NCBI GenBank assembly: GCA_046563655.1
Contig: CM102289.1
Location: 1,426,001 to 1,490,000, forward strand
Direction: 5' to 3'
Length of the DNA stretch: 64,000 nt
Source: Yuukianura sp. NJ FZ-2021
Taxonomy: Eukaryota
Position numbers and translations under genes: made by a program. Shown in pieces: positions 10,753 through 40,614 of the stretch. The notes under the pieces were generated by a model. That model was not told the DNA's origin and ran no database searches. It saw nothing but the letters and a program-made list of their open reading frames with translations. The number at the start of each line of letters is the position of its first letter. The stretch's first letter is position 1.

Positions 10753-11310
10753 TTTACACAAAATACAAAGCGTTAAAAAATTATTCCTTTAGATTCGATT
10801 GTAAACTATTCCGAAATTTCATGACAATGCAAAACCAAAAAGCAAATTAAATTTTCTTTCCAACTTTTCTGTATTTTATATATTATAGATTTTTTTAGCA
10901 CATGAGTTCGCACATACCCGTGTTAATATTAAAATTACGGTAAAAGGAAAACATCAAATGTTCAAATGTTTGTGAAATTTTGGGGAAAAAAAGTTATAAC
11001 AATGGACTTTTGCCGTTTTTGTGCCAAAAACCAACACTCAAGTTAAATACTATCTCAATTTGCAATTTCACTTTCCGCTTTCATGAAACTTGTTTTTCGT
11101 ATTCTTGAATGTTGGACACAATAGCATCTTCAATCAATAATATAAAAACAGTGTTTGACGGTCCATAAATTTTGAAAACAACTTTTCGAAATTCAATAAA
11201 AAGTGAATTAATTAATTCATCGCTTACAATTTATGAAAATTGCTTTTAATACAAATTTGAATATTAGAAATACTTTTAATATATGCTGCATCTTCATTCG
11301 TTATCTGATA

Positions 11311-12245: not shown

Positions 12246-15200
12246 ATGGCGAGTGAAAGTGATAAACCGATAACAAAAAGGAGTTTCATTTCTTCAATAT
12301 TATTTTGGTAATGAAACTCAATTAAACTCAAAACAATCGTTGATTTTTCATAAAACTGAGAATTTCAGAAAAAATTCGTTGATTTTTTTTATAGTTGGAT
12401 ACTTCCATTCCTCCGTATTGGGCGTAAACGAAAATACGTTCCATCTGACATCTACAGAATTCCTGAAATTTACTTTTCCAAAAATTGCACAGATAGATTA
12501 CAGAAAGAGTGGGAAAGGGAACTGCGCAAGTCAAATCCAAGCTTTGGACGGGCAATGTCACGTGCCTTCCGGACGCCTTTTTTAAAATGTCTGTTCATTC
12601 GTATTTTCAGTTGCTGTTTTCTTACGTGAGGCTTTGAAATGATTACAAGGTTGTAATCATGTGTTCAAGTGCAAATTTAAAAAAAGTTGTCATTGTTTGC
12701 AGTGTGGCGCGAACTGCAATTCTGGGCTTCATTGTAACATTTCTGGCCAACCAGAAGCAAAAACAGACCTCTGCTAACTCTTATGAAACGATGCTGATTT
12801 TTGTAGGAATTCTGATTGCTCTAATCATAAGTAATACGACACTGGACACCTATGCGGGGTTTTACGGTAACGAGGTTGGTATATGGGCAAGATCTGCTGC
12901 AAGTAACATCGTCTACGAAAAAGTAAGCTCACTATACCGGCGTTTCACTATTCCAGATTTTATGTTTCTCGTAATTTCACTTTTCAATAAAACAAAAAAA
13001 GATCTTTTACATTAACCTTTCCCGTCATTTTTGAAAAAATTTCTCTCGCATGTTTTCTTTTTTCATTTTTACTGTAACTGAAGACTTTGAAATAATTTTT
13101 TATTTATTTTTCGTATAGACACTTCGACTAAATGCAGCTTGTTTTGATGAACGTGATGTTCCGCAACTAGCAAACGTTTTGTCAAATGACATTAACCGAC
13201 TGGAAACCAACATTAAATATGTTCATTTCATAATCATAGCCCCCATACAACTAGTTATGGTCACTTTAGTACTCTGGCCATACCTAGGGGCATGCGCACT
13301 CACTCCTTCTCTCTTCTGCCTCTGCCTTCTCCCAATTCAGTTCATTATTGGTCATGCCTATCAAAGAATTCGGTTCAACGCGTCTGCGCAATCTGACTTA
13401 AGAGTGGAAATTCTCAAAGAAATTATCAACGGAATCAAACTCATCAAGATGTCTGCACTAGAAGTAGTTTTTGGCCAGAAAATTGACGCGCTTCGTCAGT
13501 AAGTTTTTTCTGTAAAAAAAAAAAAGAGTAAAATTCTGAAGATTTTTGTAGCACGACGTAATTTAATATTAACAGAACAGAACTGAGGTATACCAGAAGC
13601 AAATCCTATTTTGATGCATGGAACCGTTGTATTTTTGATACTGCGTCCAAAACGCTAGTCCTACTTACACTGTTTGTTTACGTTGCAACTGGAAATACAA
13701 TTACAGAAGCCAGTGTTTTTACAACGCTAAGTTTAGAACAGTATATCAGATTTACCATCACAAGTTACTTCCCGCAAGGAATCAATGGAATTTTCGAATT
13801 GTCCGTTTCATTTTCACGGATTCAGGTAAAAAATGCCGAATAATGCTTGGTTTTAATTTTGACTGAAATTCAATTTGCTTAAATTTTGAATTTAGCGCTA
13901 CTTACAACTGCCTGAAAAACAACCATGTGCTACAATACAACAGTCAATGCTTACGCCTATCAATTCAGTTGAACTGACCAATCTGAGCGTCAGTTTTTCG
14001 CAATATGGTGCTGCAGCGTTATGTAACGTTTCGCTACAGTTGAAACCGCAACAGCTCAAGGTCGTTCTTGGAATTGTCGGGGCGGGAAAGGTTTTTTGTT
14101 AAACTTTTTTTAAAAATGTGGAATTTCTAACTGAAAAGGTTTAAATTAAAGTTAAAAATTGTGAAATTTTAGACATCACTACTTTTAGGAATCTTAAACG
14201 AGTTGTACGTGCTCACTGGATCTGCGCATGTCAATGGCTCCATAGCTTATGTTCCTCAGGACCCATACATATTTTCTGGAACTATTCTAGACAATATTTT
14301 GTTCGGAAAACCGTACATGGCCGAATGGTTCCGAAAAGTCCTCAGCGCTTGTGACCTTGAGCAGGACTTGACCTCCTTCTCATCCAGAGAATTTACATGT
14401 GTCGGAGAAAACGGAACCACTTTGAGCGGTGGACAAAAAGCTAGAGTTGGCCTGGCAAGGTATTTGCTTAAATTAAGAAACTTTTTTTTATGGTATTTGC
14501 TAAAATTAAGAGACTTTTCTTGTTCAAATTTTGACTTTTTTTAGAGCAGTTTATGCTAACGCAGATGTGTATCTCCTTGACGATCCATTGAGTGCAGTTG
14601 ATCCAAAGGTGTGTAGACACTTGATGGACACCGTAATCCATGGAATGTTAAGGTCAAAGGCCATTTTGCTAGTCACGCACCAAGTTTACTACATAGAACC
14701 CGCCACTGAATATATTTTAATTGAGAAAGGGCGAGTTGTACAAGAAGGAAGGTTGAGCGAGTTGGAGTTCAGGGCCGGATCGCCATTCATTTCCGAAACA
14801 AAGTCAATGACTTTTGACATTGATACTGTAATGGGCAAAGAGACTCCGCCCCCAACAACTCTATCTATTAATCCTTTTATGTGAGGCAACTACATACAGA
14901 ACAGTTGCATTTACTATATAAAAAAAAGTTTTATGAAAAGTTTGATGAAATAGTTAGGTGTTTGGTACTTTCAGAAAGGCGCCTTTTTCTGCAAAAATCG
15001 CATTTGAACGTAAGATAGAGCAGCGAGTGCAGGGCGTGTCGTGGAAAGTGCACTGGCGGTACTTCAAAGCCGGAGCAACATTCTTCTCAGGATTTTTGTT
15101 CATAGCAATCAGTATTCTGGGCCAAATACTTCTAACAGCATCTGATGACTGGCTAAAAGTGTGGTATGTTGAGAAAATTTGAGACATACGGTGTTAATTA

Positions 15201-17255
15201 AAGTGCCTAACCACAGTGTTTTCTTTTTCAACTGTCGAATTTTAGGAATCACAATCAAAATTTGTGGAAAGAAGAAAATGGATCGAAAACTACGTATTTT
15301 TTGACAATTTATGCAGCAATGGTTGTCTGTCTATTTTTCGCGTCACTTGTATCAAACTTCCTCCTCGTCCACATTTGCATGAACTCTTCATGGAAAATTT
15401 CAAAAAAGTTGTTTTTGGGGCTATTGCGCGCTCCAATGTTATTTTACGAAAAAAACACAACTGGGCGTGTAATGAACAGGGCCGTAAGTGACGTTGGTTA
15501 CATGGATGAAACGGTGCCAAAAGCATATCAATTTCTCATTCCCGTGAGTAAATTTGTGTCATGCCAAATACAAAAGATTTTTTATATAGTTTCAAAATAC
15601 AATTTAGAGTTTGCTCCAAACCGCCGGTTCTGTCGTTTTGATGCTCCTGATTGATTGGGTTCTGGTGGCGCCCTCTATTCTAGTAATCATCTTGTACATA
15701 ATTGCACACCGCTTCTACGCACCTCCAAGTTGCGACATCAAACGACTGTCTTCTGCAACACAGTCGCCAGTTTTTGCTCAAGCGACATCAACTGCCGCAG
15801 GACTTGCGACAATTCGCGCCTTTGGAATTCAAAATTTCCTCATTGAACAATTTCGCGCCAAACAGGATGCGTATGTGGGTGCGTACTTTCTTAATTTAGT
15901 GGCTCAAAAGTGGTTCAACGCCGTTACAGTTTGGATTGTCAACATCTACGCCTCTGTAGTGCTTATAGTTTTAATTTTTACTACGAAAGGTATTCATCTA
16001 AAACTTGGTAGTAGTAACTTTATTACCGTAGTACCGTTATACGTTTTCAAAAAAGTAATTTTTTTTTCAAATTTTAGATCCGGCTACAATTGGACTTGGG
16101 CTTTCCACTACACTCTCTCTAACGAGTTTCTTTCCCGTCTGCATTTTTTATATTATTGAACTGGAAAATCAAATTATTGCTGCTGAAAGAATTTTTGAGT
16201 ACTGCGATATTGAGCCTGAAGGAAATCTTCGAAGTTTAGGTAAATATATAAACAAAATAAATTTGTTAGATTTTTATTTAAAAAATTTACAACATTCAAA
16301 TTCTCACAAGATCAAATACCTCCGCCATGTTGGGGGCAAGACGGAAAAGTTGAAGTTGAAGGCCTCTGCGTAACCTACGACTCTAACACTGCTCTGCACA
16401 ACGCCTCGCTGTCAATATTTCCAAATGAAAAGTTCGGAGTGGTCGGTCGCACAGGAGCGGGAAAAACATCACTCGTTTCTGCCATTTTTCGACTAGTCGA
16501 ACCCTCGTCAGGAAGAATCCTGATTGACAATTTGGACACGAAATTGTTCGGTTTGCATGATTTACGTGAACGCATCACCATAATTCCCCAACATCCGTTT
16601 CTATTTAGTGCAAAAGTGAGGGAAAATTTGGATCCGCACATGCAGCATTCTGATTGCACGTTGATTGAGACTTTGACTAAAGTAGGACTTTCAATTGACC
16701 TCGATACACAACTCACTCACGGTGGAACAAATTTAAGCTCTGGACAGACACAGCTCCTTTGCTTAGCAAGAGCAATTTTAACAAAAACTAAAATTTTGAT
16801 CTTGGATGAAGCTACTGCAAGCATTGACGCTCGGTGAGAAACAAAAACAAACAAAGATTTTGAAATATGAAAAATCTTCAAAAAAAAAAGTTAAAAATTA
16901 GTAATTTTTTGGAAAATGTTTTGCTTTTTAGAACGGATTTCTTAGTACAACAAGTACTGCGAGAACGGTTTCGAGACTGTACAGTGATTACCATTGCACA
17001 TAAACTGGATACGGTAGCGTCTTCTGACCGGATCTGTATACTACACTCCGGGACAGTAAAAGTAAGAAAATGATAAAAATTGAATTCCAAATTTTTAGTT
17101 TAACGCTTTTTAACACTTTGATTTTTTAGGAAATTGGTGTCCCACTTCAACTGTTGCAAGATCAAGACAGTCAATTTTATTCAATGGCAAAGCAACTTGG
17201 GCCAAAAGGATTTTCGTACATTCAATCCTTGGCTAAGAAGCAAAAACACTTTTAA
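12246..17255 (+). CDS. ABC transporter subfamily C, short MRP4/ABCC4-like (no TMD0), multi-exon
   Basis: L0-like start FCWILPFLRIGRKR, TMD1 (SNDINRL...APIQL), NBD1 GIVGAGK/TS, LSGGQKARVGLAR, YLLDDPLSAVD, TMD2, NBD2 VGRTGAGKTS, LSSGQTQLLCLARA, ILDEATASID, TIAHKL; stop at 17253-17255. Confidence 0.93.
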
Positions 17256-17626: not shown

Positions 17627-19035
17627 TTAGGGCGACTCCAACTCCTCAGAACTTCGAAATTGCACCAGCACCACGTTGTAAGTAACAATTGCGCTTAAAA
17701 TCTAGTAAATTTAAAAATACAAAACTTAAGCTTGGTTGTCGTTTTGTTTTTGTTTTTGGTTAATACGTTCTTACCGACGTCAGTAAACTTCGATTGATTT
17801 TGAAGTAGCCAAATGCAGTTAGCTCAAATTTTGCAATTTTTCTCAGCTGTTTCAAGTACGCCAAGCTGTCTTGATCAGATACTGTCATTGGTGGTATCAA
17901 CAAAGCACTCTTAAATAGTAAATTGCTCTAAACAACAGAAAAAAAAATTTAATCAAAAATTTTGCAAATAATTTTTTATAACAATAACTTATTTTTTATT
18001 ATATCATTTAAATGTAAATAGTTTGGTTACCTTTGATGCAAGTCTTTCTCCACAGTTAGTGAGCCACACTAGTTTTAATATTATTGCACCTATGCTTGTA
18101 AAATTAATCAAAAGCGAAATAGGCACATTCAGAATAAGATAAGCTGTACTACACACATGGAAAATGCTGAGGGTAATCAAAAAAGAAGTAAAACAAAGTT
18201 CAATTACCAAAAATACTTGAACTCCATTTGCAAATATTTCAAAAATTTCATGCATTTCGATTATTTCGGAAGCAACGAAATTAAAATCCGGTTGCAAAAA
18301 CTTTCTATACCAAATTCCGGTTTTTAAATTTTTGCAAATTTCACTCACTCGAGGCTCTACATTCAACAACTCCTTGACTTTAGTCAAGCGTTGTTCTAGT
18401 ATTAGGATTGTGAAAGAAATGAGTACAACGACAAAAATACTTGGACATATTGCTAAAATCCTAAAAACTACAAAAATTGTGTTTAAAATTTCGAACGGAA
18501 TGTGCAATCCATGAATTTTGTAGTTTGGAAAACTGGTTTCAAAAGCAATGGTTCGGTCGATGACATAAAGTGACTCAAGTATGAAACTTCCAACAAAAAA
18601 TAGCAAAACTGGAAAAATTGCGGTAACGAGTCCTTTTGGTGTTAGATTGCATCGAAGCTTGCTGTTTTTGCTGTACTTGTCAATTGCACTAAACATTTGA
18701 ATTGTACGTGACAAAAAATACATGTACACAACGTGAGTTGTACTTGTGTAAATCAAACTGGTCCAAAACATTACCTGCATTAGTTGCTCACTTAAATGTG
18801 AATTTAACTTGACTGAATCAATTTCTGCATTGATTGTGGCAATGTCAAATGGGACTATGATTGGCGCACAAGAAATGAAAAAACTGAAAACAAGAATTGT
18901 GCAAATTCCATTCAAACTGTTCCAACTTAAGTGGTAAATTGACTTCCAAATGTCTATAACTGGGAAAAGGCCTATAAAAGCACCAAAATATGCAATAATT
19001 TTTAGCACAGTAGAGTCAGAAAGACTAAAACCCAT
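17627..19035 (-). CDS. Gustatory receptor copy C (exons 19035-18031, 17927-17775, 17701-17627)
   Basis: Intact paralog with the same exon structure and TYNVVLVQF motif. Confidence 0.88.
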
Positions 19036-20076
19036 TTCAAACAAAAAATGCAAAGCGTTCAAAAATTTAGATTTGAGCCGAAATTCTGTGACAATGAAAA
19101 AACTCAAAAGGAAATTGAATTTTTGGCCAACTTTTCGTGTATTTTATATAGTACAAATTTTTGTAGCACTTGGAACAGTCACTCTGCTTAATGTGACAAT
19201 TACTGTAAAAGGGAAGCGGCAATGTCAAATTTTGTGAAATTTTGAAAAAAAAAGTAATGCCGTGTTGGCGTGAAAAACCAACACTCAAGTTGAATACTAT
19301 GTCAATTTACATCATACATTACGTTTTTTTCTTGTTTTGAAAATTTGAGTTTTGTATTTTTGAATGTCACCACTCACGAATAATATTCAAAAGCGTTTCT
19401 CTTTCAACAAATTTTGAAAACCACTTTTCGAATTTCATTAAAAACTGAATTGGTATATTCATTGCTTAGAACTCGTGGAAATTTTTTTTTAAGTTTTTTT
19501 TGAAGACAAAATTGAACTTCAAAAACAGTTTTAATGTTTGCCAGCCACTTAGTAAAGCCTTTTGCACAAATGCTTTACTAAGAGTTATGACGTTACTATA
19601 CGTTTAGCCTTTGCTTTGATAATCTCCTGTTCAATTACTTTCAAGCTTTACAGAAAACCGACACGTTTTTAACCACCCTTAACCTTTCTAAACAATGAAC
19701 AAAGAAACGCTTTACAAAAAAGTATTAAAACCTTAAATTGTTTAACCTTGAAAAGGTGTCAAAAAATTTTCAACTATTCCTGCTGAAAAATCTGCTGTTT
19801 ATAAGCAAAATAGAAATTGGTAGTAGTCTGTCTGTGTACAGTTTTTGTGAAAAACCTCTTTTGAAAAATATAGAAAGGCTTACGAACAAAGGTAAGATTT
19901 AAAAAAAAACTGAAAAGTCGAATTTTGGAACTGTTTTTCTGATACCCAATTATTATTTTTATTGGCCAATATACAAATAAACTAGAATCCTAACATTAAC
20001 AACCTTACAAAATTTGCTTAAGTGGTCGGGAACTCCGATTCCCGAATTTTTGTGTTTGGTAAATTGTTTGCAAGTA

Positions 20077-20808
20077 TCATTTCTGTGCGGATTCTGTGCC
20101 TATACTTGAAGTAGTTCCTTTAAGGTCTGGGTTAGTTAGGCTTGAATTAGATTTTCCGGTGTCTCGGGGAGAGTTTGGGAACTCGCATTTTTCTGGGTTG
20201 GAGGCAGGTTTACAAGCTTCTTTTGCTGAAACTACTTTTGGACAGAAGCAGTACACATTGTAGTTTTCAGCGTCGTAGAGGATTTTTGCCACAGTGTTGT
20301 ACACATTTTGTTGTCCGGCAAGATTCTTGGCCAATGTCAACCTATTCACAGATTCTCCGTCTTCGCATGCGAGTTGTGCAGGACGACAATTGTGATTGCA
20401 AATACATTTTGCAACACCCAAAGCTTCCTGGACAGTCATCAGAGCGCTGGCGGCGATTCTCAGTAAAGAAGTCACAGTAGACTTACCTGAGCCCCCCACA
20501 CAGACGTCGAATCCATTCTTACCAAACAGAGTCCCATTGCACGTATGGCGAGGTAGAGCTAAAATGAAATATTACGTAGTACTTTTACGTACTTTTTATG
20601 CAGTACATATTACGTCTCTGCATATTGCATATTGTAAGTAGTATTACATTAATTACATAAATTACATGACCTGTTTTTACAACAAATTTATGTAATTTCG
20701 GATTAAGCAAATTTACAACTCACTTTTGCCTCCGCTGGCTTGAACCGATGTTAAAGTCAATGCCCAAGAAAAAGCGAGAGCTGCAATAAATGCAAATGTT
20801 GTCGTCAT
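20077..20808 (-). CDS. Secreted 10-Cys protein, family copy 1 (exons 20808-20724, 20558-20077)
   Basis: Signal-peptide exon MTTTFAFIAALAFSWALTL, phase-1 intron, conserved AKCxCNxxC...CxDG...YCFCP...ACKP..NPEKCE; longer Ser/Thr tail than the other copies. Confidence 0.85.
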
Positions 20809-21130
20809 AGCGTAGCTGAACAGGAATTTCTAAAATCGCGAAATTGTTGCTGCGTTTGAGCCTTTTGAAAAAGTTTGGAAATTCTTTATGATTGAACAAA
20901 ACTTCCAAAAACTGAAGTTTAACCTTTAAGTTGATTATCTCCTATATTTAGTTACGTGCTTTACACAAAAACGCCGCTTTTTAAACCCCACTAAAAATTT
21001 GAACAATAGTCAAAGAATAGCTTTACAAAAATTAACAATTATCTACGTCAAACTTTTTATGAGAGAAACGCGCCAAGTTTAGATCGGCCGAACTCTTCAC
21101 TAAAATGTTTTTTTTTAAGGTAGAGTTTTC

Positions 21131-21897
21131 CGTAACCAGGCATTAACGGACGGTCACTAACGGCCCGATATACTAACGGACGGTCACGAACGGACGGTCA
21201 CTAACGGACGGTCACTAACGGACGGTCTCCAACGGACGTTCACTAACGGACGTTCACTAACGGACGGTCACCAACGGACGGGCACTAACGGACGGTCACC
21301 AACGGACGGGCACCAACGGACGGTCACCAACGGACGGGCACCAATGGACACATACTCTAATGGACACTTACTCTAACGGACGGTCACTAATGGACATTGA
21401 CACACCTTGTTTCAGTCACTGAAAATTTACAAATTTTTGAAACGCAGCGACAATAAAGTCGGCTCTGAATTCAAGTTGGCAACATTATTTACTAATTAAT
21501 TCAGTAAATCTGCTTTAATTTTCCCGCGCCGAAGGCGCGGTGTTAGGTTATAAAAATTGGCAGTTGTGATTAGGTTGTAGGTTAGGTTAATTAACTTAGG
21601 CTATTGCCGCTAAGTTCAAAAATCAGTTAATTTTCAGTGACTGAAGCAACGTGTGTCAATGTCCATTAGTGACCGTCCGTTAGAGTAAGTGTCCATTAGA
21701 GTATGTGTCCATTGGTGACCGTCCGTTGGTGCCCGTCCGTTGGTGACCGTCCGTTAGTGCCCGTCCGTTGGTGACCGTCCGTTAGTGAACGTCCGTTGGT
21801 GACCGTCCGTTAGTGAACGTCCGTTGGGGACCGTCCGTTCGTGACCGTCCGTTAGTATATCGGGCCGTTAGTGACTGTCCGTTCGAGTCCGGGAATC
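21131..21897. mobile_element. Non-autonomous foldback/MITE-like element with ~285-bp inverted arms built of 14-bp subrepeats
   Basis: (aacggacggtcact)n on the left and its reverse complement on the right. Unique inner arm sequence is also inverted (21395-21428 vs 21629-21661). Direct repeat gagttttc at 21123-21130 and 21898-21905. Confidence 0.85.
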
Positions 21898-22026
21898 GAG
21901 TTTTCAGTTGAATTTTTCGAATCTACACTAGTAGAAATTCTGTTTTACTACACACACTACTAAACTACACAATTTCCATAAGTTGAAAACGGATACACAT
22001 TGATATTTTGAAGGCATTGTAGCAAT

Positions 22027-23412
22027 TTATTCTCCTTCAGACTCAGAACTGTGAAATTGCACCAGCACCACGTTGTAAGGAACAACAGCACTCAAAATCT
22101 AACAAATTTAAAAATTAAACTTAAGCAGTGCATGGTTTCTGTTCTGTATTTGTGTTGTTAAATTTATCCTTACCGATGTCAGTAATGTTCGATTGATTTT
22201 GAAATAGCCAAATGCAGTTAGTTCAAATTTTGCAACTTTTCTTAACTGTTTCAAGTAAGCCAAACTCTCTTGGTCTGATACAGTCATTGGCGGTATCAAT
22301 ACAGTGCTGTTAAAAAGTGAATTGCTCTAAAACGAAATAAAAACAAAATTTTACAACGAAGTGTTTACAACATTATTTTTTAAATGTAAGTAGTTTTTGG
22401 TTACCTTTGATGCAAGTTTTTGTCCGCAGTTAGTGAGCCATACTAGTTTCAAAATTAGTACAGCTAAGCTACCGAAATTAATTAGAAGCAGAACAGGCAA
22501 CACGTTGTAAATAAGATTCATTGTGCTACATACATGAAAAGTTGTCACAGTAAGCAGAAAAGAAGTAAAACAAAGTTCAATTACAAGAAATAATTGAACT
22601 CCATTTGCAAATTTTTCAAAAATTTGATGCAGGTGGATTATTTCAGTTGAGATAAAATTGAAATCCGGTTGCAAAAACTTTTTATACCAAATTCCAGATT
22701 TCAAATTTTTGGAAATTTCAGTCACACGATGCTCCACATTCAACAGCTCCTCAACTTTAGTTAGCCGTTGCTCTATTATTAGTGTTATGAAAGAAATGAG
22801 TACGATTACAAAAATACTTGGACATGTGACTAATTGCATAAAAACTACAACTAAAGTGTTCAAAATTTTGACCGGAATGTGCAATCCATAAAGTTCATAG
22901 TTTGGAAAAATTGATTCAAAAATTAATGTTCGGTCGACGACAAAAATGGACTCAAGTATAAAACTTCCAACAAAAAGCGGCAAAACTGGAAATATTGCTG
23001 AAACAAATTCTTTTGGTGTCAAATTGCATCGAAGTTTGCTGCTTTTGATGTACTTTTCAATTGTACTAAACATTTGAATTGTTCTGGGCAAACAACACAT
23101 GTAGGCCAAGTATGTGCTAGTTATGTAGGCCAAATTGGTCCAAAACATTAACAAAAGAAGCTGCTCGTGTAGATCTGAATTTAATTTGGCTGCATTAATT
23201 TCTGCCTTCACGGCCGCACTGTCAAATGGGACTACGAGTGGTGCACAACAAATGACACAACTGAAAACAAAAATTGTGCAAATTCCATTCAAACTCTTCC
23301 AACTTAATTTGTAAATTGACTTTCTGATGTCCACAACCGGGAAAAGAGCTGTAAAAGCACCAAAATATGCAATAGTTTTTAGCAAAGTGGAGTCAGAAAG
23401 ACGGAAACCCAT
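22027..23412 (-). CDS. Gustatory receptor copy D (exons 23412-22405, 22326-22174, 22098-22027)
   Basis: Intact paralog; TM7 motif reads PYNVVLVQF. Confidence 0.85.
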
Positions 23413-24395
23413 TTTACGAAAAAAGGAAAGCGTTAGAATAGTTTCCGCAGATTTGATATTAAACAGTTGCGGAATTTTGTGACAATGCAAAAGCCAAAAG
23501 AAAAATTAAATTTTTCTCCACTCACTTTTCTTTATTATATATATTACAAATTTTTTAACACTCGAATTTACATTTACTCTGCATAATGACATTAGGGTGA
23601 AAGGAAACCGCCTAAGAATCAACGTTTGGTGAAATTTTGGAAGAAAGAGTTATAACAATGGACATCTTTTTTTCATCAAAACCCAACACTTAAGTTGGAT
23701 ATTTCAATTTACAAATTCACTTTTCGAAATTTGTGTGTTTTTTCTTGTAACGGTTGAATGTTTATTTTTGTATTTCTGTTCGTTTTAGACACATTGTCGT
23801 TTTTGGTAAATTCATGCAGAAACAAGGTAAGTCTTTCTATAAATTTCAAAAACAACTTTATAAATCTGTATAAAAATTGAATTAGTAAATTCATGACATT
23901 ACAGTTGACGGAAAACTTGAAAAAATACAGATGCTGTACAGTGTTCAGCGCAAATTGAAAATTTTCATTTTGAAATCTATTGTGTGAAAATTCTTTTGTG
24001 AATTTTAGACAAGAGACGTAGAACTAAATTGAACTAAATTTTTTCTACAGACGCCATACTCATCAACAAAACTCCATTCCTCTGTACTTATAACCAAGAA
24101 AGACACAATGCCTTACAAAACATCGTCCACTTGATGATATTTTGTGTTTTATTTGTGTAAACTTTCACTTTCCTTTGATTGACATCTAAGGACGAAACTG
24201 GTTTATGATTTCCAATTCTGACGAAAGAAGAATGCTGTAACCACTTCTGCTCTTGCAACTGATCATCCATTTCAAGAAATTTAGTTACTTTGTTAGTATA
24301 AATTTAGTTACTTTGTTACTTTGAAATTACTTTGAAATTTAGTTACTTTGTTTGTATAAATTTTACAAGGTAAATAAGAAAATTAAAAGTTCACA

Positions 24396-25969
24396 ATGGT
24401 TCATCAATTTCGATGTGGTTTTGTTCTTCTATTTATTTTTGTTTTACATTCTCAATACTTTTTTGGTGTCCTCAGTAGCGGAAGTTCAACCGTAAAACCG
24501 AAAACGAGACTACAATATTTTGAACTACGAAGACAAAAGCAAGTCGTAAGTATTTTCTTTTTTAAGGGGAGACATCAGGTCAATAAAAACAACGCCAAAG
24601 AGTGTTTTGTAGACATGGCAACGACTGAGAATTGCGAATTTAGAACTACGTAATCACGAAAAACCCGAACGGGTGGATTCTTTACGATTGAAATTTTGAA
24701 CAACTCTCAGGCTAACTCGCTAATCACTGTGTTAAATTTCAAATTTGAGAACCATTTGCCGTTTTTCTAAAACTGTCAGACGAAGAGGATGAGCCATTTC
24801 TTAGCCTCAATTCTCAGGTTGCCCTAACTCTTGGTGACGTAATACGAAATTGTAAATTGTAAACACAAAATTCGTGGACTCTGACCCAATCTACTGGTGC
24901 ACTTCCTGACTGATTGGTAAGACCCTCAGAAAACTACGACCACACTTTTCGCATTAGCACACGCTAATAAACATCACACCGATGGACTATATGACGAAAA
25001 CAGGAGCCTTCGTCCAGAAAACTTAGGTTTTCTGGATTTCCGCGGGGATTTCAGAAACATCTTCCAGAAAACCTAAGTTTTCTAGCCTTAGGGTCCTGTT
25101 TTCGTCATATAGTCCATCGGTGTGATGTTTATTAGCGTGTGCTAATGCGAAAAGTGTGGTCGTAGTTTTCTGAGGGTCTTACCAATCAGTCAGGAAGTGC
25201 ACCAGAAGTCTTATGGGGAATTAGGTAATAAGCGAATCTGTCCATCGTAATCTTAATTAGGTTTTTCAAATGCCTAAGTTGTAGTTTGTAAATCATACTT
25301 CAAAATTTGTATAAGAAAACTTGAATTTTCAAAACGTTATGAACCATAACCTAAACCTACCACTTTTTAGCATAATCTGCAACTTTTTCCATTTTCTAAA
25401 CAGACCACGTCACTGCCTAGCCCATCTCCAACATCAACACGGAAACAAAAAACGACGACTGAAGCCACGGTAGACGATGAAGAAGTTGAAAAACCTCGCG
25501 TTTTTGGAAACGCTCGCGGCGGGGAACAAAGTTCAAACGAGCCGGAAGTTTCAGAATCCGAAGATTCAAAGGAAAAGTCAACCCCCGAAGTAACTTCCAA
25601 AAGGACTAAACCTACTTTGAATGGACGTCGAAGCTACTTGGAGTACTTCCGTCCCGGAGCTCGAAACAAGGTCGGGGCTCGATTCTTGTCAAAAGCAAAT
25701 TGCCAATTTTTTAAAACTACTTTTTAAAAGTTGTTTGGTGTGATTTTTAGTCAAGTCCGAGAACGACTACTACAAGAGCTCCAAGAAAATCCAAACCGAG
25801 GGAAGAATCTAACTCAAATGCTTCAGCTCCACCTAGTGGCTGCAGTGAATGTCGGTTTTACTGCAAACAGTGTCGTGGAACTGAAGAAGTTTCTACTGGC
25901 GGAGTATGGGGATGCTGCAACCATAACTGTTGTGGCGGGAGGTGTAGTTGTCAAAAAGTTCAAATTTGA
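24396..25969 (+). CDS. Secreted S/T/E-rich protein with a C-terminal 10-Cys domain (exons 24396-24545, 24613-24649, 24780-24817, 25404-25670, 25751-25969)
   Basis: Signal peptide MVHQFRCGFVLLFIFVLHSQYFFGVLS and phase-consistent GT-AG exons. Last exon encodes ...GCSECRFYCKQCRGTEEVSTGGVWGCCNHNCCGGRCSCQKVQI*. The two small middle exons are less certain. Confidence 0.72.
24894..25205. repeat. Intronic palindrome / MITE-like element: 112-bp inverted arms plus an inner 21-bp inverted pair
   Basis: 24894-25005 is the reverse complement of 25094-25205; inner pair agaaaacttaggttttctgga / tccagaaaacctaagttttct. Confidence 0.9.
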
Positions 25970-26422
25970 AAAAAAAAGTTCGAAATGTTCAGAATCTGAA
26001 CAACTTACTTAATTAGTTTACTACAAACTTGATTCTATTTGATTATACTATTTTTAAATTTGAAGAGAAAAATTTTTGTACAATTTGCAACCTGAAATAA
26101 TAGCAAGCAGTATTTTGCTGTTTTCAAATTTCTAAAATTTTTGTGAAATTCGTTCTCGCTTCAACAGTTGCAAAATGAAGAGTCAATTTTATTTAAATTG
26201 TATAAAGCAAATTGGATAGCAATTTTTTTTGCACATTTAATTATTGGATGAAAACGTAAACAACATTGGAAATTGCAAAATTATAGAACATTTTAGGTAT
26301 TGAGGAAGTTGTAAAAAAAAAAACAAAGTTTAAGTTTAAAATTAAAGTAAAATGGTGCCAAAATTTAAATAGTATACAAAGTGAAACTGCCGGAAGTAAC
26401 TTTGTCGGTTACTTAAATCCAT

Positions 26423-27076
26423 TCATGGCCCTGGTGTTGGGTACTCGCATTTCTGTGGTTTGTTGACCGACTTGCAAGCGTCTTTTGCAGAAACAAATTC
26501 AGGACAGAAGCAAATGGCCTGGTAGTTTTCAGCGTTGAAGAAAATTTGTGATAGTGCGTTGAGCACGGATTCATGTCCAGCAAGGTTCAGCGCTAATGTC
26601 ACCGCATTTACCAGTTTTCCATCTTTACAGACGATTGTAGGCGGATGACAACTTTGGTTACAAACACATTTGGCAACACCCAGAGCTTCTTCAACAGCAA
26701 ACAGAGTGTCTGCAGCGAGTTTTAGCAGAGAACTCTCAGTGTTCGTACTTTTGTCAAACACGCAGACGTCAAATCCATTATTTCCCAAGAGTTGCGCATT
26801 ACAGGTTTTGGCAGGCGTGGCTAAAATAAAATAATATATAGTATAACATAATATAAGTTGTCCAATTAACACACTTTTTGCACTTAATTGTCAAATATTA
26901 CTACATCACATATTGCATAGCACTTTAAAATATTACATGATTACATATTATATAATTTGTGAGCATGTTATGTTAAAACAAACTTGAAACTTACAACCTC
27001 CCCCTCCTACCATAACCGACGCTCGCGTTAGTGTTGAAGATGCTAAAACTGCAAGGAGCAAAACTGCCGTCGCCAT
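26423..27076 (-). CDS. Secreted 10-Cys protein, family copy 2 (exons 27076-26995, 26820-26423)
   Basis: Signal peptide MATAVLLLAVLASS, same intron position, conserved Cys pattern ending NKPQKCEYP. Confidence 0.87.
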
Positions 27077-27586
27077 GGTTTCCGTAGTAGCGTTCCTGAA
27101 CTGAAATTTTGAAAAAGCGCGAATTTTTTGTTGCTGCTACTGCTTGAGTCCCGACTTCCAACTGAAAGTTTTTTCGAACTTTTTCTTTATAAAGTCAAAT
27201 TCGGACGCTCAGACAAACGAAAAAGGTCATTTCAAAAAAGTTTATTTTTAAAAAAAGTGTTAAAAAGATCCTTTGTTTTTGAACAAAACTTTTCAGGGTT
27301 TGGTAAAATTTTAAGCTTTATCTTGGTAATGCGGTGTCTATTTTCACGTTTTTCGGAAAAACTTTTTTTGTTGTCCCCGATGAACAATGAACAAGGAAAT
27401 GCGTTTCCTTTAGCCTTTAGCAAACTTTCAGAGAAGCAATTTTCCAAAACATTTATTAATTTTTATTAGAGAAAAAATTAAAAGATTTGCATTCTTGAAA
27501 AGAAAAAACAAGTAGAGTGGCACGAAATTTGAATTTTGAAAACTACAATTGATGGAAGTGGCACAACTTTTAAGTTCACTTTTATT

Positions 27587-28205
27587 TCATTTTTCTTCTG
27601 TGGAATTTGGATACTGGCATTTCTGTGGATTGGGGACCGGTTTGCAAGCATTTTTCGGCGAAACGTGTTTTGCACAAAAGCAGTGCAGCGTGTAGTTTTC
27701 AGCGTGGAATATAATTTGTACCAGTGCGTTTAACACGGACTCATTTCCAGCAAGGTTCAGTGCCAATGTTAACTTATTGATCAAATTTTGATCTTTACAG
27801 ACGACTGTTGGCGGAGTACAGTTTTGGTTGCAAACACATTTTGCAAGACGCATAGTCTCCAACACAATGCCCAAACTGTTTCCAGCAAGCTTCCCAAGAG
27901 AACTCGGAGTGTTTGTACTTGAATCAAACATGCAGGCGTCATATCCGTTGTCTCCAACCAAAGCAGGATCACATGTCTTAGGGGGCGGAGCTAAAATAGA
28001 ATTTATATCTAGCAATATATATTACATATTCTACTGCAACATGTTGCGTAGTACTGTTACGTTAAATAGATAACATTATTAGAGTAATAAATAATAAGTT
28101 TATTTAACATATTTAGAACTTACATGTGCGTGCAATGGCTTCAGCCGATGTTAACGTCAATGCCCAAGATGCGAGAACAGCAAGGAGTAAAAATACTGTT
28201 GCCAT
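27587..28205 (-). CDS. Secreted 10-Cys protein, family copy 3 (exons 28205-28124, 27990-27587)
   Basis: Same two-exon structure and Cys pattern. Confidence 0.87.
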
Positions 28206-28544
28206 GGTTTCTGTAGTAGCGTACTGGACTCAAATTTTAAAAGTGGCAAATTTTTTGTTGCTGTCTCCTGAAAAAGTTACCGTAACCTAAATCGCGTATT
28301 TTCCAGCAATTGCTGTAAGACACTACTAAAAGTTTAACCTTTACCTTGAAAATTTCATTCATAATTTCATTGTTTAATTACTTACATTCTCTATAAAGAA
28401 AACCTTTACAATACTCTTTTACAATACTAAAATTTTTCAAATAATGAACAAAAAACAGACTTTACAAAAACTATTCAAACTTTCATCAAAATTTTTATTA
28501 AAGAAGCAATAATTTATTTAATAGCTTGAAGAGGATCGCAGTAT

Positions 28545-29140
28545 TTACTGCCCTGAACTCGGGTATTCGCATTTTTCAGGATTGGCGACAGGTTTACAAG
28601 CGTCTTTTGCGGAAACTTGTTTTGGGCAGAAGCAATGTACTGCGTAGTCTTCAGTATTGGCAAGTATTCGTACTAATGCACCAAAAACATCCTCGTGACC
28701 TTCCAACTCCAGTGCCAATGTCAACAAATTGACCAATTTCCCATCTTTACAAACGAGTTGTGCTGGATGACAACGTTGGTTGCAAATACATTTCGCAACA
28801 CCCAGAGCTTCTTGAACTGTTAGCATAGTGTTTTCTGAGATCTGCACAAGCAAACTCTCAGTGTTGGCGTTTGAGTCAAAAAAGCATGTGTCGTAGCCAT
28901 TCATTCCGAACAAAGTGGCGTTACATGTGGTAGAATGTAGAGCTAAAACAAAAAATTACAACACATAATTGATTTTGAATAGCATAATATGACTGTTACT
29001 TTTTTTGAATAGCAAATATTCTAACTCGAATATTATTTCAAGCAAAAAATGTACTTACGTTTGTTTCCAGTCAGAAGTTCACTTGAAGTTACCACCCAAA
29101 CTGTCATAGCCGCAAAAAGCGTCGGGGATACTGTCGCCAT
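28545..29140 (-). CDS. Secreted 10-Cys protein, family copy 4 (exons 29140-29059, 28942-28545)
   Basis: Same two-exon structure and Cys pattern. Confidence 0.87.
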
Positions 29141-29864
29141 GGTTTCCGCAAAGTTTTTAAAATTTGTAGCTTAATAAATAGTGGGTAATTAGTTGTTGCT
29201 GCTACAAGTTCAGTTTTGGAAATAAAATTTCTAACTTTCAAAGGTCAGAATCAAAAGTTTTCTTTGAAAAAAAGAAAAAAATGATTTTAAAGAAGAATGT
29301 TTTTGTTCAGAACCCACAGTTCTTCGTTTTTACTAGAACTAAACAGAATTTTAGCAATTTTTTTACCCACTGATTGAAATTTATGTAGTTGTTCAACTAT
29401 TGCCTTGTGAAGTCTTTTGTTGCAATACAAATACAACAGTATGTATTTCAAAAACCAAAAGTCATTTTAAAAAGTTTTTAAAAAATTTTCCACTAACCTC
29501 GCTGAAAAATCTATTGCTTATGATGAAAACTTTTAAACGCAAATACACACTCAAAAGTTTCGTGGAAAACCTTTTTTGAACAATGTAAAAATGCTTTGGA
29601 AGAAAAGTAGTAATTCTAAAAACGAAACTGAAAAGTCAAATTTTGGAACAGTTTTTTCACATATCCAATTGTGCTACTTTTTTGTTTATTAATATATAAC
29701 TAACGTAGAACCCTAACATAACATAGCAATTGAATTGAAATTGTAGCAAGTTAAGTACCAAATGTAACGTACACATCAAGTTTGTGACTACAACAACATT
29801 TTTGTGTTACAAAGGTAAAATGGCGTCAAAATCATATTCAAAAAAAAACTTCCGAAACCGAGCT

Positions 29865-30535
29865 TCATGATCGGGAATTTGGATACTCGCATTTTTGTGG
29901 GTTAGCAACTGGTTTGCACGCTTTCTTTGCTGGAACGTGTTTTGGACAGAAGCAGTAAAACTGGTAGTTTTCACTGCTATACATGATTTGCGCCAAAGTG
30001 TTGTACACAGACGCATCTCCGATTTTGAGGGCCAATGCCAACTTACTCACCAAATGGCCATCTTTACAGACGAGTTGTGAAGGACGACAACTTTGATTGC
30101 AAACACATTTTGCAGCATGCAAAGCTTCTTGAACAGTAAACAGAGCCTTTGCTGCCATTGTCATAAAAGTAGTCGCAGTAGTATTACTTGAGCCCAACAA
30201 GCAGATATCGTATCCATTTTTGCCAAACAGATTCCCATCACACGTTTGGGGGCCTAAAATTGATTAAAATATAGTATAACATAATTTAATTGGTTCAATT
30301 AACACATTTGCTGGTTGCCAAATATTACTACGTAATAAATATTACACAATCACATATTAAATCATTTATACTTCTCATATTACGTCATATTGCATAGTAG
30401 TAATACACTAATTAAATTACATTATTACATTAAGATTAACTATATTTACAACTTACGTTTGGCTCTCCTGGCTTCAGTCGATGTCAATGTCAAAGAAAAA
30501 GCGAGAGCTATGAGGAGTAACGATACGGTCGTCAT
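29865..30535 (-). CDS. Secreted 10-Cys protein, family copy 5 (exons 30535-30457, 30253-29865)
   Basis: Same two-exon structure and Cys pattern. Confidence 0.87.
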
Positions 30536-31323
30536 GGTTTCCGTAGAAGCTAGTTAATTTTTGAAATCAAGTTTGTTGTGTGCTTTTTGAAAAAAATTAA
30601 AATTCTTTATTTATGAATATAAGCTATAAAAACTTACTGGAATTTTAACCTTGTACGTTGATAATCTCGTGATTAATTACTTATGCTTTACAGAAAAACG
30701 GCACTTTTTGAGCCTTACTAAATTTTTGAACAATAGACAACAAAAAGCTTTACAAAAATGACAATAACCTACGTCAACATTTTTATTAGAGAGGCAATAA
30801 TATTTTTCATTACAAAGCATATTGACCGCCTACCGTATTTGGATATACGAATTTTCTGGATTAGCTTTTTGAATGTTTTGTTAATACGTAGGAGTCAAAT
30901 GCATTAAGAAGGAAAAAGAGCGTCTCCAAAAGTAAATTTTGAACGAATCTCACACGGAACTTGTATTCATGGCAATTTTTTTTCTTACAACCTAACTACT
31001 TCGTGCAGAACCCCGAAAGTTTTTGAGCAGTTTTCAAATTTAGTAAATTTAGTAAAAAATTTCCAAAACGTTTTCTACCGAAAAATTATCGGTGCCGAGT
31101 CGAATTGTACTGCAGTTTTCTATAAAAAGTTTTATTTGGATACAAACGAAACCAAAGTTAAAAACCAAACATGAACTAATCCAACTGAAATTTAAAGAAG
31201 GGAAAACACAAAGTCAAAAGTTAGTTGCTCAACAGCCTTTAAATGTTAATAAGATTTAAAAAAAATTCAGCAAATGAAGAAAATGGCGCCAAATTTGATA
31301 CATTCGAAAAAGAAATTCAGAAT

Positions 31324-32166
31324 TCAAGCTTCATGGTCGGAGTTCGGATACTCGCATTTTTCTGGGTTGGCGACTGGTTTGCACGCCTTTTTTGCTGAAA
31401 CTTGTTTTGGACAGAAGCAGTAAATCTGGTAGTTTCCAGTGTTGTAGAGCATTTGAGCCCAAGTATTGTACACAGACGCATCCCCAACCACACGCCCCAA
31501 TTTCAACGTAGTCAGCAAATGTCCATCTTTACAGACGAGTTGCGAAGGACGACAACTTTGATTGCAAACACATTTTGCAGCATGCAAAGCTTCATTGATA
31601 GTAAAGACAGCGTTTGAGTAGAGTTTTATAAAAGAACTGGTTGGAGTCGAACTGGAGCCCATCGCACAAATGTCAAATCCATCCTTGCCAAACATAGTCG
31701 CATCACAAGTTTGAGCAGCTAAAATAAATTAACATAGTATAACAGAATTTAATTAGTTCAATTAACGCATTTGTTGCCAAATATTAAATGATTACCACAC
31801 CTGTCAAAAATATTTACCAAAAACCAGTAGATCATTTACGGACATAATATTAAGGGCGTGGGTGAATAAATAAATATTCAGTAACAAAAGAACTGAAATA
31901 TTGATTTTGTTCATTACAGGCGTGAGAACTAAATATTTTTGGCAGGCCTAATAATTAAGTATTAAATATTACACCATCACATATTAAGTCGTTGCATATT
32001 TCATATTAGTATGACATTAATTGTATAAATTATATTAAATTGATTAAAATTAAACATACTTGCATTACGTGTTTAACTTACGTTTGCCTCTCCTGGCTTC
32101 AGTTGATGTTAACGTGAATGCCCAAGAAGAGGCGAGAGCTATGAGGACTAACGATACTGTCGTCAT
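31324..32166 (-). CDS. Secreted 10-Cys protein, family copy 6 (exons 32166-32082, 31718-31324)
   Basis: Closest to copy 5; intron enlarged by an insertion. Confidence 0.87.
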
Positions 32167-32802
32167 GGTTACCGTAGTGACGTAGCTGGACTTTAAAATT
32201 TGTTTCCGCTTTGTAAAAAAGTTTAAAAATACTTTCTTTTTTTTAATTTTGAATAAAAGCTTTTACAACTCACTAATAAAAGTTTGACCTTTAAGTTGAT
32301 AATCTCTTGTTTAATTATTTATGCTTTACAGAAAATCTACAGTTTTTAAACCCTACTAAAAATTTTGAACAATGGGCAAAGAAAGCCGTAACAAAAACGA
32401 AACTAACCTTTGTCAAAATTTTTATTAGAAAAGCAATAATATTTTTCTGTAGTTACCGATTGTAATTCATTTGTTCTGGAATTCCTTTTTGATTTTTTTG
32501 TTAATACGTAGGAGTAAAGCGCAATGAAAAACGAAAGCGCTCTTTCGAATAGTATACTTTGCACCAATTCCACACAAAAAAAGGGATAGACATAACAAAG
32601 AGTTAGAATTCAAACATGAACTAAATGAATTGAAATTGGATAAACGGACAACACAAAGTCAAAAGTTTAGTTGCTCTAGATTAAAAACTTGATTTCCATT
32701 TCATTAAAAAACCTTATTGAGTAAATGGTTCAAATTCCGTCAAATTTAACAGAGTCAAACGGGAAATTGAAAAATTAATTTTAATTTTTCAGTTTCTCGT
32801 GT

Positions 32803-33422
32803 CTATGCTCGGGAATGTGGATACTCGCACTTTTGTGGATTGTCGACTTTTTTGCAAGCATCTTTAGCCGAAACTAGACCTGGACAGAAGCAGTAAAACT
32901 GGTAGTTTTCAGTCTGGTAGATGATTTGCGTTAGTGTCTCGAGCAGACCCTGGTAACCAGCAAGATGTGTTTCAAGTAGCAGCCAGTCCACCAATTTTCC
33001 ATCTTTACAAACGATTTGTGATGGATGACAACTTTGGTTGCAAATACATTTTGCAATACCCAGAGCTCCTTGGACTGCAAAGTCAGGGTTTCCCAGAATA
33101 GCCAGAAGAGTACTCTCTGTATTCGTACTGGAGTCCATCACGCAGATGTGAAATCCATTATCGCCAAACAGAGTTGGGTCACATGTTGCGGGAGGTTGGC
33201 CTAAAATAAAATAACATTTTATATAATTAAATAACTAGTTTTTAATAGCATAATATCTTAATATGTTACTGCTGTTGAGTTGAGTAAAATATTTCCATCC
33301 AAATACTATTTTAAACATTTTAACCATAAAATCAACTTACTTTTGTTTCTCGCCAAAAATCCACTTGAAGTTACCGTAGAAACCGGAAGAAACGCAAGAA
33401 GTACGAGGGATACTGTCGCCAT
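32803..33422 (-). CDS. Secreted 10-Cys protein, family copy 7 (exons 33422-33341, 33200-32803)
   Basis: Same two-exon structure and Cys pattern. Confidence 0.87.
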
Positions 33423-34044
33423 GGTTTCCGGAAAGTGGCTCAAATTTGGAGTTTAGGAAAGAGTATTTTTTTGTTGCTGATGCTACAAGTTTAGTTTTGG
33501 AACTGAAATTTTGAAGATTAAGTTCGAGTGAATAGTTTTTTCGAAAAACTAAAACCAAATGGCAAAAATAGTTGTTTTAAAAAAATACTATTTTTGTTCA
33601 GAACCCAAATTAGTTCGTTTTTTTATTACAGCAAAAAAAAAACGTTTATAAAATTTTGTACTAATCCTGTGTGTGAGTGGACACTTCATGAAAAAGCTCC
33701 ACGTTCGAAAAATTTTTAGAACAATGTAAAACGACAATGTTAAGAACATAATTTCAAAAAGTACCAAGAACCATAACCCCCCAAGTTGGATTTTGTGCTC
33801 ATTGTTAGTTTATTTTCGGTTACTTTTTTGCCTCAAAAAAGCTTTTTTCATAAAAAAGGTTTTGCTAGCTTAAGAAAATTCGTCCTGTGTATTGCCAGAT
33901 GTCATTCCTACTCACTTGCTTTAGCGTGTCTGGCCACTTGTGAAGTAGCGTACAAAGGAGTTAGGTTTAACCTGACTCAAAGCATATAATATAAATATAA
34001 TACATTATAAGACATATTAATATTATTTACCCAACATCATATTT

Positions 34045-39056: not shown

Positions 39057-40170
39057 GATTACTGCCTGGAAAAAGTCGAAAACTGAAAATCAAAATTTTA
39101 GGTTTTGACGTTTCGGGAACCTATTTGACTTTTGACGTTTGACGAACTTAAGAAAATCTGAGATTCATTGAGAGCTTTTATACATTGCTTGGACAATGTG
39201 GAGATAATGTCCAGAAATATCAAGTTATCATTGACTTCGGGCGATTTTGAAGAACAATGCAAAATATTACCATAGCCTATTTTTTCTTATAAATCGCCTT
39301 CATCCAAGGCATTACTCCAGAACCGATGGAGAAAAAATTTATGCCAAATGCTATAATAGCCTACGCAAGAACGAAATTAAAAAGAAGCTTTCTGGACTTT
39401 GAACTTTTTGTGACGATAATCTTGTAACTATCATCGGGCGTCATTTCAGTGGAACAGAAAAGACATCTCCAAGGTCAGCATAAAGTGTCGAAGGTCAACA
39501 GTGCAAAAAAGTGAAATTCGTCTCGATTATCATCAGATTGTGCTAAAACAGGAATATTCTAGATAATTATTGAGCACACTCAACTATTTACATAGCAATG
39601 TTTCAAAAAAAAATGCAAACTAACTACATAACATTAATATAGTAAAAGAAAAAATTATTCGCTTATGCTATTTCAAATTGGACTTTGGTGACAACGTTTA
39701 AAAATGAACAAAAAGACTAAAAATTTATTCTTTCGGAAGCGTGTATTTCCGCGAATTTTTTTTCTCCAAATGTTGCATATGTGGCTGTGGTTTTTCCAAA
39801 AAAAAACTGGTTTGGTTCCAAAAAATTATGAACTTCAGAACTTTCAAAATTTGCCGGAACTTGAACTTTAATTTTTCTGGTAACACTGAAAGTTTTATCA
39901 ATAAGTGATCAATCATCTACACAAAGAGCACAACACCTGAGTATATTGTAATTTCAACACAAAAAGTACATATATCAATTGAAATGTCCAAACCAGAAAT
40001 TTTTTTAAATTTTGCCAGTGTATTTAAACTCCACCGGCAAAACTCAAATAACAACATTAACTTTTTAAACAAAAAGGTAATGTAATAAAAACTAAAACAA
40101 AATTTGAAATTTTCGAATGCGATATTTAAGATTTATTTTTTCAATTTCAGAAACTTCCAATTTTTCAAAC

Positions 40171-40614
40171 ATGTCAGCACTTCCGATCTTCTTGAGCGCA
40201 GTTATTCTAGTGTCTGGACTTTTTGACTGTACAGATGCCACGGCTACACACTGTGACCGTTGGAACGGAAACCGTGAATACCGTTGTGCTAAAGACAACT
40301 ACCGAGATGACGCCATTCGAATTACAAGCAGAGGAGAGCGCGTAGAATTCAAAATTGGGAAATGGGTATCTGACTGTGGCAGAGGAGGAGTCAACTACGA
40401 AAATATTGACAGTTTCGTAGATCCCGGTAGAAGTAGAGACTACTACTTCCGGTCAGCAGGGAATGGAAAATGTGAAGAATTTTACATTCACAACTGCCGT
40501 GTCCGTGGTGATGGACGCGACTGCGTAAACGTCCTTAGTCCAAATCCTGTCAATCGCAACTTTGTTCAACCACCGCGCCGCACTGAAGCACCGAAAGGGG
40601 CTATTTTCTTGTAA
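40171..40614 (+). CDS. Small secreted 6-Cys protein, copy 1 (single coding exon, 5'-UTR intron)
   Basis: Signal peptide MSALPIFLSAVILVSGLFDCTDA, then THCDRWNGNREYRCAKD...KCEEFYIHNCR...DCVNVL; close paralog ~1.3 kb downstream. Confidence 0.85.
   Translation: MSALPIFLSAVILVSGLFDCTDATATHCDRWNGNREYRCAKDNYRDDAIRITSRGERVEFKIGKWVSDCGRGGVNYENIDSFVDPGRSRDYYFRSAGNGKCEEFYIHNCRVRGDGRDCVNVLSPNPVNRNFVQPPRRTEAPKGAIFL

Follow-up and report, generated by a model that had tools for sequence, protein, structure and literature searches.

Seven tandem genes for an undescribed family of ten-cysteine proteins in Yuukianura sp. NJ FZ-2021

The described systems closest to the genes reported here are the small disulphide-stabilised carrier proteins and a set of ten-cysteine domains. 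Odorant-binding proteins (OBPs) have six cysteines and chemosensory proteins (CSPs) have four, and both are all-helical and enclose a pocket. Crustacean larval factor (Clf) and follicle cell protein 3C (FCP3) are arthropod ten-cysteine domains in which five disulphides are presumed, and the Clfs were found to have no Pfam domain (PMC6391395). Here we describe a tandem array of seven genes in a 64,000-nucleotide stretch of Yuukianura sp. NJ FZ-2021 DNA (GenBank assembly GCA_046563655.1, contig CM102289.1, positions 1,426,001 to 1,490,000 of the forward strand), which is called the window and is numbered from its first letter. The array occupies positions 20077-33422 of the minus strand. Like OBPs and CSPs, its products are small, apparently secreted and disulphide-stabilised, they are encoded in tandem, and the paralogues have diversified, making a functional analogy possible. 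They differ from OBPs and CSPs, with their six or four cysteines and all-helical folds, in having ten cysteines and a predicted alpha/beta fold. Judged from its sequence, the family is a real, intact and constrained seven-gene array with distant relatives in at least one springtail. We are confident, short of certainty, that the genes are real and that the family is unrecognised.

Gene models and constraint on the array

A stop-to-stop scan of open reading frames (ORFs) between 19.5 and 34 kb identified seven intact paralogues, all neighbours, with ORFs of 132-164 codons. The array is bounded by the stop codon of copy 1 at 20077 and the ATG of copy 7 at 33422. GT donors and AG acceptors were enumerated to build the gene models, and the identical solution was obtained for all seven copies. 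Each gene consists of a signal-peptide exon, a phase-1 GT..AG intron and a single large exon. A preliminary description of the locus had claimed seven intact minus-strand genes with this layout, and the claim stands for every copy. The models are as follows, with the leader ATG and the stop-to-stop ORF given for each.

20077..20808, minus strand: copy 1, precursor of 188 aa; ATG 20808; exon 1 20724-20808; intron 20559-20723 (165 nt, phase 1); exon 2 20077-20558; ORF 20077-20571
26423..27076, minus strand: copy 2, precursor of 159 aa; ATG 27076; exon 1 26995-27076; intron 26821-26994 (174 nt); exon 2 26423-26820; ORF 26423-26890
27587..28205, minus strand: copy 3, precursor of 161 aa; ATG 28205; exon 1 28124-28205; intron 27991-28123 (133 nt); exon 2 27587-27990; ORF 27587-28021
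28545..29140, minus strand: copy 4, precursor of 159 aa; ATG 29140; exon 1 29059-29140; intron 28943-29058 (116 nt); exon 2 28545-28942; ORF 28545-28955
29865..30535, minus strand: copy 5, precursor of 155 aa; ATG 30535; exon 1 30457-30535; intron 30254-30456 (203 nt); exon 2 29865-30253; ORF 29865-30263
31324..32166, minus strand: copy 6, precursor of 159 aa; ATG 32166; exon 1 32082-32166; intron 31719-32081 (363 nt); exon 2 31324-31718; ORF 31324-31728
32803..33422, minus strand: copy 7, precursor of 159 aa; ATG 33422; exon 1 33341-33422; intron 33201-33340 (140 nt); exon 2 32803-33200; ORF 32803-33234

Exon 1 is 79-85 nt long and the introns span 116-363 nt. The phase-1 donor is GTAAGT in six copies and GTGAGT in copy 1, and copy 2 has an alternative phase-1 donor 3 nt upstream. 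The donors join in frame to a pyrimidine-rich TTTTAG acceptor in all seven copies. The ATG lies ~115-450 nt upstream of each ORF and opens a hydrophobic leader of 20-22 residues with the form M[AT]T..L.LA..A...LT.TS, and the products of all seven copies look secreted. A poly(A) signal (AATAAA or ATTAAA) is found 1-190 nt past each of the seven stop codons. Copies 2-7 form repeat units of ~1.0-1.5 kb separated by intergenic gaps of 340-789 bp, and copy 1 is set 5.6 kb apart. The copies detect each other by tblastn at E values of ~1e-51. When all seven proteins were used as tblastn queries, exactly seven loci were recovered in the 64-kb window; no extra copy, fragment or pseudogene was detected there, apart from one chance match at E=0.28. 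Past the last cysteine motif, copy 1 has a C-terminal tail of 28 residues rich in Ser, Thr and Asn (20080-20170, minus strand) that is missing from the other copies and may be a glycosylated or disordered extension.

The 300 nt preceding each ATG were compared in all 21 pairs and scored against 30 mononucleotide shuffles. An example of these upstream blocks is the following.

33423..33722, minus strand: upstream block of copy 7 (promoter and short 5' untranslated region); equivalent 300-nt blocks precede every ATG

The z score was at least 5 in 13 of the 21 pairs and below 3 in the other eight. Conservation of the upstream sequence, which had been claimed for the copies in general, thus holds for subsets of the array and fails for those eight pairs. 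Copies 1, 5 and 6 form one group (z 28-36), copies 4 and 7 form another (z 29), and copy 3 aligns with copies 1, 5 and 6 at z 11-13. In several pairs, the upstream block is better kept than the intron (z 33.5 versus 5.7 for copies 1 and 5). Five copies have the same ..GGAAACC ATG context, from which copy 6 deviates at a single base, and an initiator-like TCAG lies 20-30 nt ahead of the ATG in several copies.

Nonsynonymous (dN) and synonymous (dS) distances were estimated by the pairwise Nei-Gojobori method over the mature part of the proteins. The dS values range from 0.48 to 2.0 among the 21 pairs, with the largest between copy 4 and the other copies (1.2-2.0), and the dN/dS ratio is 0.16-0.68 and falls below 1 in every pair. 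By these distances, the seven copies are old duplicates. The reading frames, the splice sites and the cysteine codons are intact despite the large dS, and this speaks for purifying selection on every copy. An alternative is that the copies are non-functional or never-expressed duplicates whose ORFs were kept open by recent duplication. In its favor, a 15-billion-protein collection holds no identical or nearly identical protein (best E value 5e-17), and the genes may be annotated nowhere. This alternative is highly improbable because not one of the seven frames, the splice sites or the 70 cysteine codons has been lost at these synonymous distances, the dN/dS ratio is below 1 throughout, and upstream sequence is kept more strongly than the introns.

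Cysteine frame and relatives of the family

The seven proteins are 46-58% identical to copy 1 in an alignment that contains 30 invariant columns, all ten cysteines included. The cysteines follow the order C..C..CxC..C..C..CxC..C..C in every copy. Behind the signal peptide, the family is also marked by the motifs CxC-x3-C-x-P-x4-C and C[FY]CP. The near-invariant cysteine scaffold proposed in the preliminary description is therefore present in full. The consensus string that it quoted is correct for most copies, including the CQYP of copy 3, and departs from the sequence at single sites in three of them: copy 3 has C.DQ in place of C.DG, copy 5 has VPAK in place of VS.K, and copy 7 has GFH in place of G[FY]D. 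The mature proteins are ~14 kDa. Their isoelectric points range from 5.0 to 8.8, and net charge ranges from -6 to +5 among the copies.

A profile of the seven copies was searched exhaustively with HMMER against 1.84 billion representatives. Eleven proteins matched at E<=0.001. Two of these were long bacterial immunoglobulin-repeat proteins that were judged spurious, and nine are true relatives (P0001-P0004, P0005, P0006, P0008, P0010 and P0011; profile E values 5e-17 to 7e-4). The sole named relative is P0005, the 'uncharacterized protein' LOC110852041 of the springtail Folsomia candida, and two others derive from JGI and Logan contigs of ~1 kb each. Neither LOC110852041 nor any of the eight unnamed relatives has a described function. 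All nine lack a Pfam domain, and neither PBP_GOBP nor OS-D matched them at E<=0.1. The best profile match scored only 78 bits, which indicates that the seven genes and their close orthologues are absent from the searched collection. The relatives are 23-36% identical to the window copies and share their cysteine order and the motifs CxC..C.P.Q[IL]VC and Y..xC[FY]CP. The full-length relatives P0003, P0005 and P0008 also have hydrophobic leaders like those of the window copies. There are differences as well. A GN..W motif in helix A is kept in most relatives and is lost from the seven window copies, P0003 has an extra N-terminal Cys-rich region, and P0008 has an 80-residue C-terminal extension.

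A maximum-likelihood tree was calculated from 14 sequences, the seven copies and seven outside relatives. The seven copies form one clade with 97/97 support. Within it, copies 5 and 6 pair (98/96), copy 1 joins them (83/89), and copies 2 and 3 pair (85/84). By this topology, the family is older than the array, which arose as a lineage-specific tandem expansion. Eight cysteines and one proline are invariant in the 14-sequence alignment, and one further cysteine (in at least 90% of the sequences), one valine and one proline are near-invariant. Only nine relatives were found, one of them in a springtail, and from this distribution we conclude that the family is old and rare; it is also so far undescribed. 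The 'new class' of the preliminary description is new in being undescribed; it is not confined to this genome, with nine relatives elsewhere, the springtail protein among them.

Other searches did not connect the family to anything characterised. No Pfam family matched any of the seven copies at E<=1, and the family profile had no match among PDB sequences at E<=10. A word-indexed search with copy 4 against 5.8 billion clusters returned no homologue, and the same type of search with a 16-sequence profile returned only three proteins, all found previously. Queries of the ESM Atlas with copy 4 and P0005 gave no usable feature match. Atlas structure rows for P0005 were discounted, as the underlying model had a predicted local distance difference test (pLDDT) of 0.38 and template modelling (TM) scores were <=0.37. 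A literature search with the Folsomia locus name, peptide motifs and family descriptors found no description of the family. Clf and FCP3 aside, the papers that it turned up were unrelated, among them one on Retroactive, a Ly6-type protein. Ly6/uPAR three-finger and TIL domains are small all-beta domains. These and other ten-cysteine Pfam domains were rejected on the absence of a match at E<=1 and on the long helices predicted for the family. Membership among the OBPs or CSPs was rejected on the absence of a profile match, the ten cysteines and a predicted fold of five strands and four helices. The family thus proved as unrecognisable as first described, and the profile search that had been suggested returned relatives and no characterised family.

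By description, Clf and FCP3 are the nearest analogue. They raise the alternative that the array encodes structural extracellular-matrix proteins of cuticle, eggshell or peritrophic matrix. Clf and FCP3 occur in crustaceans and insects. They too measure 100-200 aa, have a signal peptide and ten conserved cysteines and come in several isoforms in each species, and chitosan is bound by recombinant Clf (PMC6391395). However, their cysteine order is CxC..C..C..C..C..C..CC..C, which differs by eye from that of the family, and visual comparison with the supplementary sequences found no common sequence motif (PMC6391395). Because the cysteine order differs, membership was rejected and the family is not filed under Clf/FCP3. 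The proteins of the array also have no chitin-binding region, low-complexity region or Pfam match, and their charge is neither uniformly acidic, as in Clf, nor basic, as in FCP3. A matrix role is very unlikely on this evidence.

Divergent segments, predicted fold and proposed role

The distances between copies were pooled over five segments of the mature protein.

Columns 1-24, N-terminal part: dN 0.34, dN/dS 0.26
Columns 25-49, first helical segment: dN 0.52, dN/dS 0.75
Columns 50-67, central Cys core: dN 0.14, dN/dS 0.24
Columns 68-101, second helical region: dN 0.44, dN/dS 0.47
Columns 102-130, C-terminal Cys part: dN 0.19, dN/dS 0.15

The two helical segments have dN values of 0.52 and 0.44 compared to 0.14-0.34 elsewhere, which confirms the earlier observation of a fixed cysteine frame with variable helical segments between the cysteine clusters.

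The structure was predicted with AlphaFold2 from the 14-sequence alignment using copy 2 as the query. The best model had a pLDDT of 71.5 and a predicted TM score of 0.67, and four of the five models were at 70-71.5. The predicted elements are E6-8, E18-21, H28-46, E51-55, E62-66, H73-79, H84-98, E102-105 and H112-115, giving five strands and four helices. The predicted fold is a small alpha/beta domain, in which the cysteine motifs sit on the short strands at residues 51-55, 62-66 and 102-105. In this moderate-confidence model, Cys-bearing strands (KCxCN, xxVCK and xCFC) would make up a sheet, and three amphipathic helices would pack on it. Foldseek comparison of the model with PDB gave a best E value of 3.3 and TM scores <=0.21, and none of the 65 matches listed was at E<=0.001. 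The best E value against BFVD was 0.66, and none of the 80 matches listed was at E<=0.001. The structural comparison outlined in the preliminary description therefore yielded no similar structure in either database. A new fold is a possibility if judged from this model.

The conserved positions suggest how the proteins may work. The ten invariant cysteines would pair as five disulphides that lock the frame. The residues conserved across the family (nine cysteines, two prolines and one valine) look like a scaffold and not an active site. There is no conserved set of His, Asp or Ser residues, which points to non-enzymatic extracellular binders; we consider this assignment reasonably probable. 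Paralogues have diverged both in their helices and in net charge, and each copy probably has its own partner or affinity. Our reading of the family as a whole is that it consists of secreted proteins of a recognition or effector type, acting as immune, reproductive, secretory or signalling ligands. This reading is tentative, with less than an even chance of being right. Macromolecular or surface targets would be bound through the variable helical face.

A competing idea, put first in the preliminary description, is that small hydrophobic ligands are carried in solution by these proteins, in functional analogy to OBPs, CSPs and NPC2; the helices would enclose a paralogue-specific pocket. Small, secreted, disulphide-locked proteins in a tandem array are consistent with this idea. 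The mature proteins have a grand average of hydropathy between -0.31 and +0.07, which is fairly hydrophobic for secreted proteins. Side-chain size also shifts at hydrophobic helix sites (L/G/V/M/I at column 33, M/F/G/L at column 41 and Y/F/A at column 95), and because they change size at such positions these substitutions lean toward a pocket. The predicted fold does not fit as well. It is an alpha/beta fold with a sheet core, and Foldseek found no similarity between it and a solved carrier. PBP_GOBP, OS-D and ML are among the Pfam families that none of the copies matched. Most OBPs and CSPs are acidic, whereas the isoelectric points of the seven proteins spread over nearly four units, from the acidic to the basic side. 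We regard carriers as unlikely. The effector-type reading is preferred over dedicated chemosensory carriers by a weak lean, because of the charge divergence and the fairly high dN/dS. The four readings taken together leave part of the probability unassigned. The preliminary interpretation as a whole, in which immune, toxin or pheromone effectors were also named, is supported in part.

Several observations weigh against the effector-type reading. The signal peptides were called by eye and not with a predictor. The dN/dS ratio exceeds 1 in none of the five segments, so positive or diversifying selection is without support. The mean pairwise difference in helix A is 0.59 at hydrophobic-class columns and 0.58 at polar columns, and in helices B and C the corresponding values are 0.47 and 0.58. 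Hydrophobic and polar helix columns thus vary about equally, and a variable surface is not favored over a variable pocket. The AlphaFold model made from the seven paralogues only had a pLDDT of 39 and was unusable; the better model is just moderate, and its residues 68-75 are below a pLDDT of 50. Finally, the single gustatory receptor (GR)-like gene in the array fits the carrier idea as well as it fits chance.

Chemoreceptor context and significance

The array had been described as interleaved with GRs and an ionotropic receptor (IR). The window contains four paralogous GR-like ORFs with a seven-transmembrane look and the ORF that was called an IR.

7321-8370, minus strand: GR-like ORF
9724-10788, minus strand: GR-like ORF
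18004-19143, minus strand: GR-like ORF
22351-23505, minus strand: GR-like ORF
4076-5974, plus strand: 'IR' ORF of 632 codons (4076-6279 with the adjoining ORF)

The claim of interleaving holds only in part. One GR-like gene (22027-23505, minus strand) does fall within the array, where copies 1 and 2 flank it. The other three are outside, in the interval from 7.3 to 19.1 kb, and the 'IR' ORF had no Pfam match at E<=10 and no PDB sequence match better than E=3.6. The large exons of the four GR-like genes had no Pfam match at E<=0.01, and two of them that were rescanned at E<=10 did not match 7tm_7. A small exon of the gene inside the array (22111-22326) aligns to the end of the 7tm_7 profile (positions 325-358) with an E value of 0.012 and a score that does not reach the gathering cutoff, and the last exon of the gene (22027-22098) reads ..PYNVVLVQF. 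The motif in the seventh transmembrane segment of insect GRs ends in ..QF. A comparison of one GR-like ORF with PDB sequences gave only a chance match (E 0.71). The carrier alternative draws on the one GR-like gene within the array and the three more within 13 kb; however, adjacency to receptor genes is no known predictor of carrier function, and the argument from chemoreceptor context is weak. In a bolder form of that alternative, the proteins would have a new fold and would found a class of extracellular ligand carriers in arthropods that is separate from OBPs, CSPs and NPC2. Such a class would date back far enough for springtails to possess it, and its expansion here would lie next to chemoreceptor genes. 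We think this quite unlikely, more so than carriers in general.

Two inverted-repeat elements lie in the space between copies 1 and 2. The first, a foldback-like element with two inverted arms, occupies positions 21139-21883, with copy 1 on one side and the GR-like gene on the other. The best arm pair is 21200-21441 and 21615-21856 (242 nt, 93% complementary), and the arms contain a 14-nt tandem repeat, TAACGGACGGTCAC, in ~10-15 copies per arm. The second is a hairpin at 24891-25208 that is close to perfect: its 146-nt arms are 96% complementary and enclose a loop of 26 nt. It has the look of a miniature inverted-repeat transposable element. The remaining features noted in the window are listed below. 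Scanning the window for Rfam families and tRNAs returned no matches.

12638-16837, plus strand: ORFs that are likely ABC transporter exons; 16244-16834 contains an ABC_tran domain (E 3e-31), and its best database matches are ABCC proteins, the two top-scoring ones from beetles (53% and 46% identity), with plant, fish and mollusc proteins at 50-52% identity
38419-38868, minus strand: ORF of 149 codons, helical by eye, with no Pfam match at E<=0.01
40108-40614, plus strand: single-exon ORF with a hydrophobic leader and several cysteines, with no Pfam match at E<=0.01
45700-47183, plus strand: tyrosine-kinase exon (PK_Tyr_Ser-Thr, E 5.5e-27)
~52.85-52.95 kb: ORFs broken by a run of X, which suggests a run of N at an assembly gap in the draft scaffold
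60373-61113, minus strand: ORF with a 2H-phosphodiesterase/DUF1868 match (E 2e-5)

Much of the chemosensory, immune, reproductive and salivary biochemistry of arthropods resides in small secreted disulphide-rich tandem families. The array described here belongs to a moderately interesting orphan family whose value is that of a lead. The family lacks a Pfam model, a solved or recognisable structure and a literature of its own, although its age is sufficient for a springtail to have a member. Its fold may be new, provided that the model of moderate confidence is correct. Two-exon genes of such a size are readily overlooked in other genomes, and giving the family a name and a profile would let them be annotated there.

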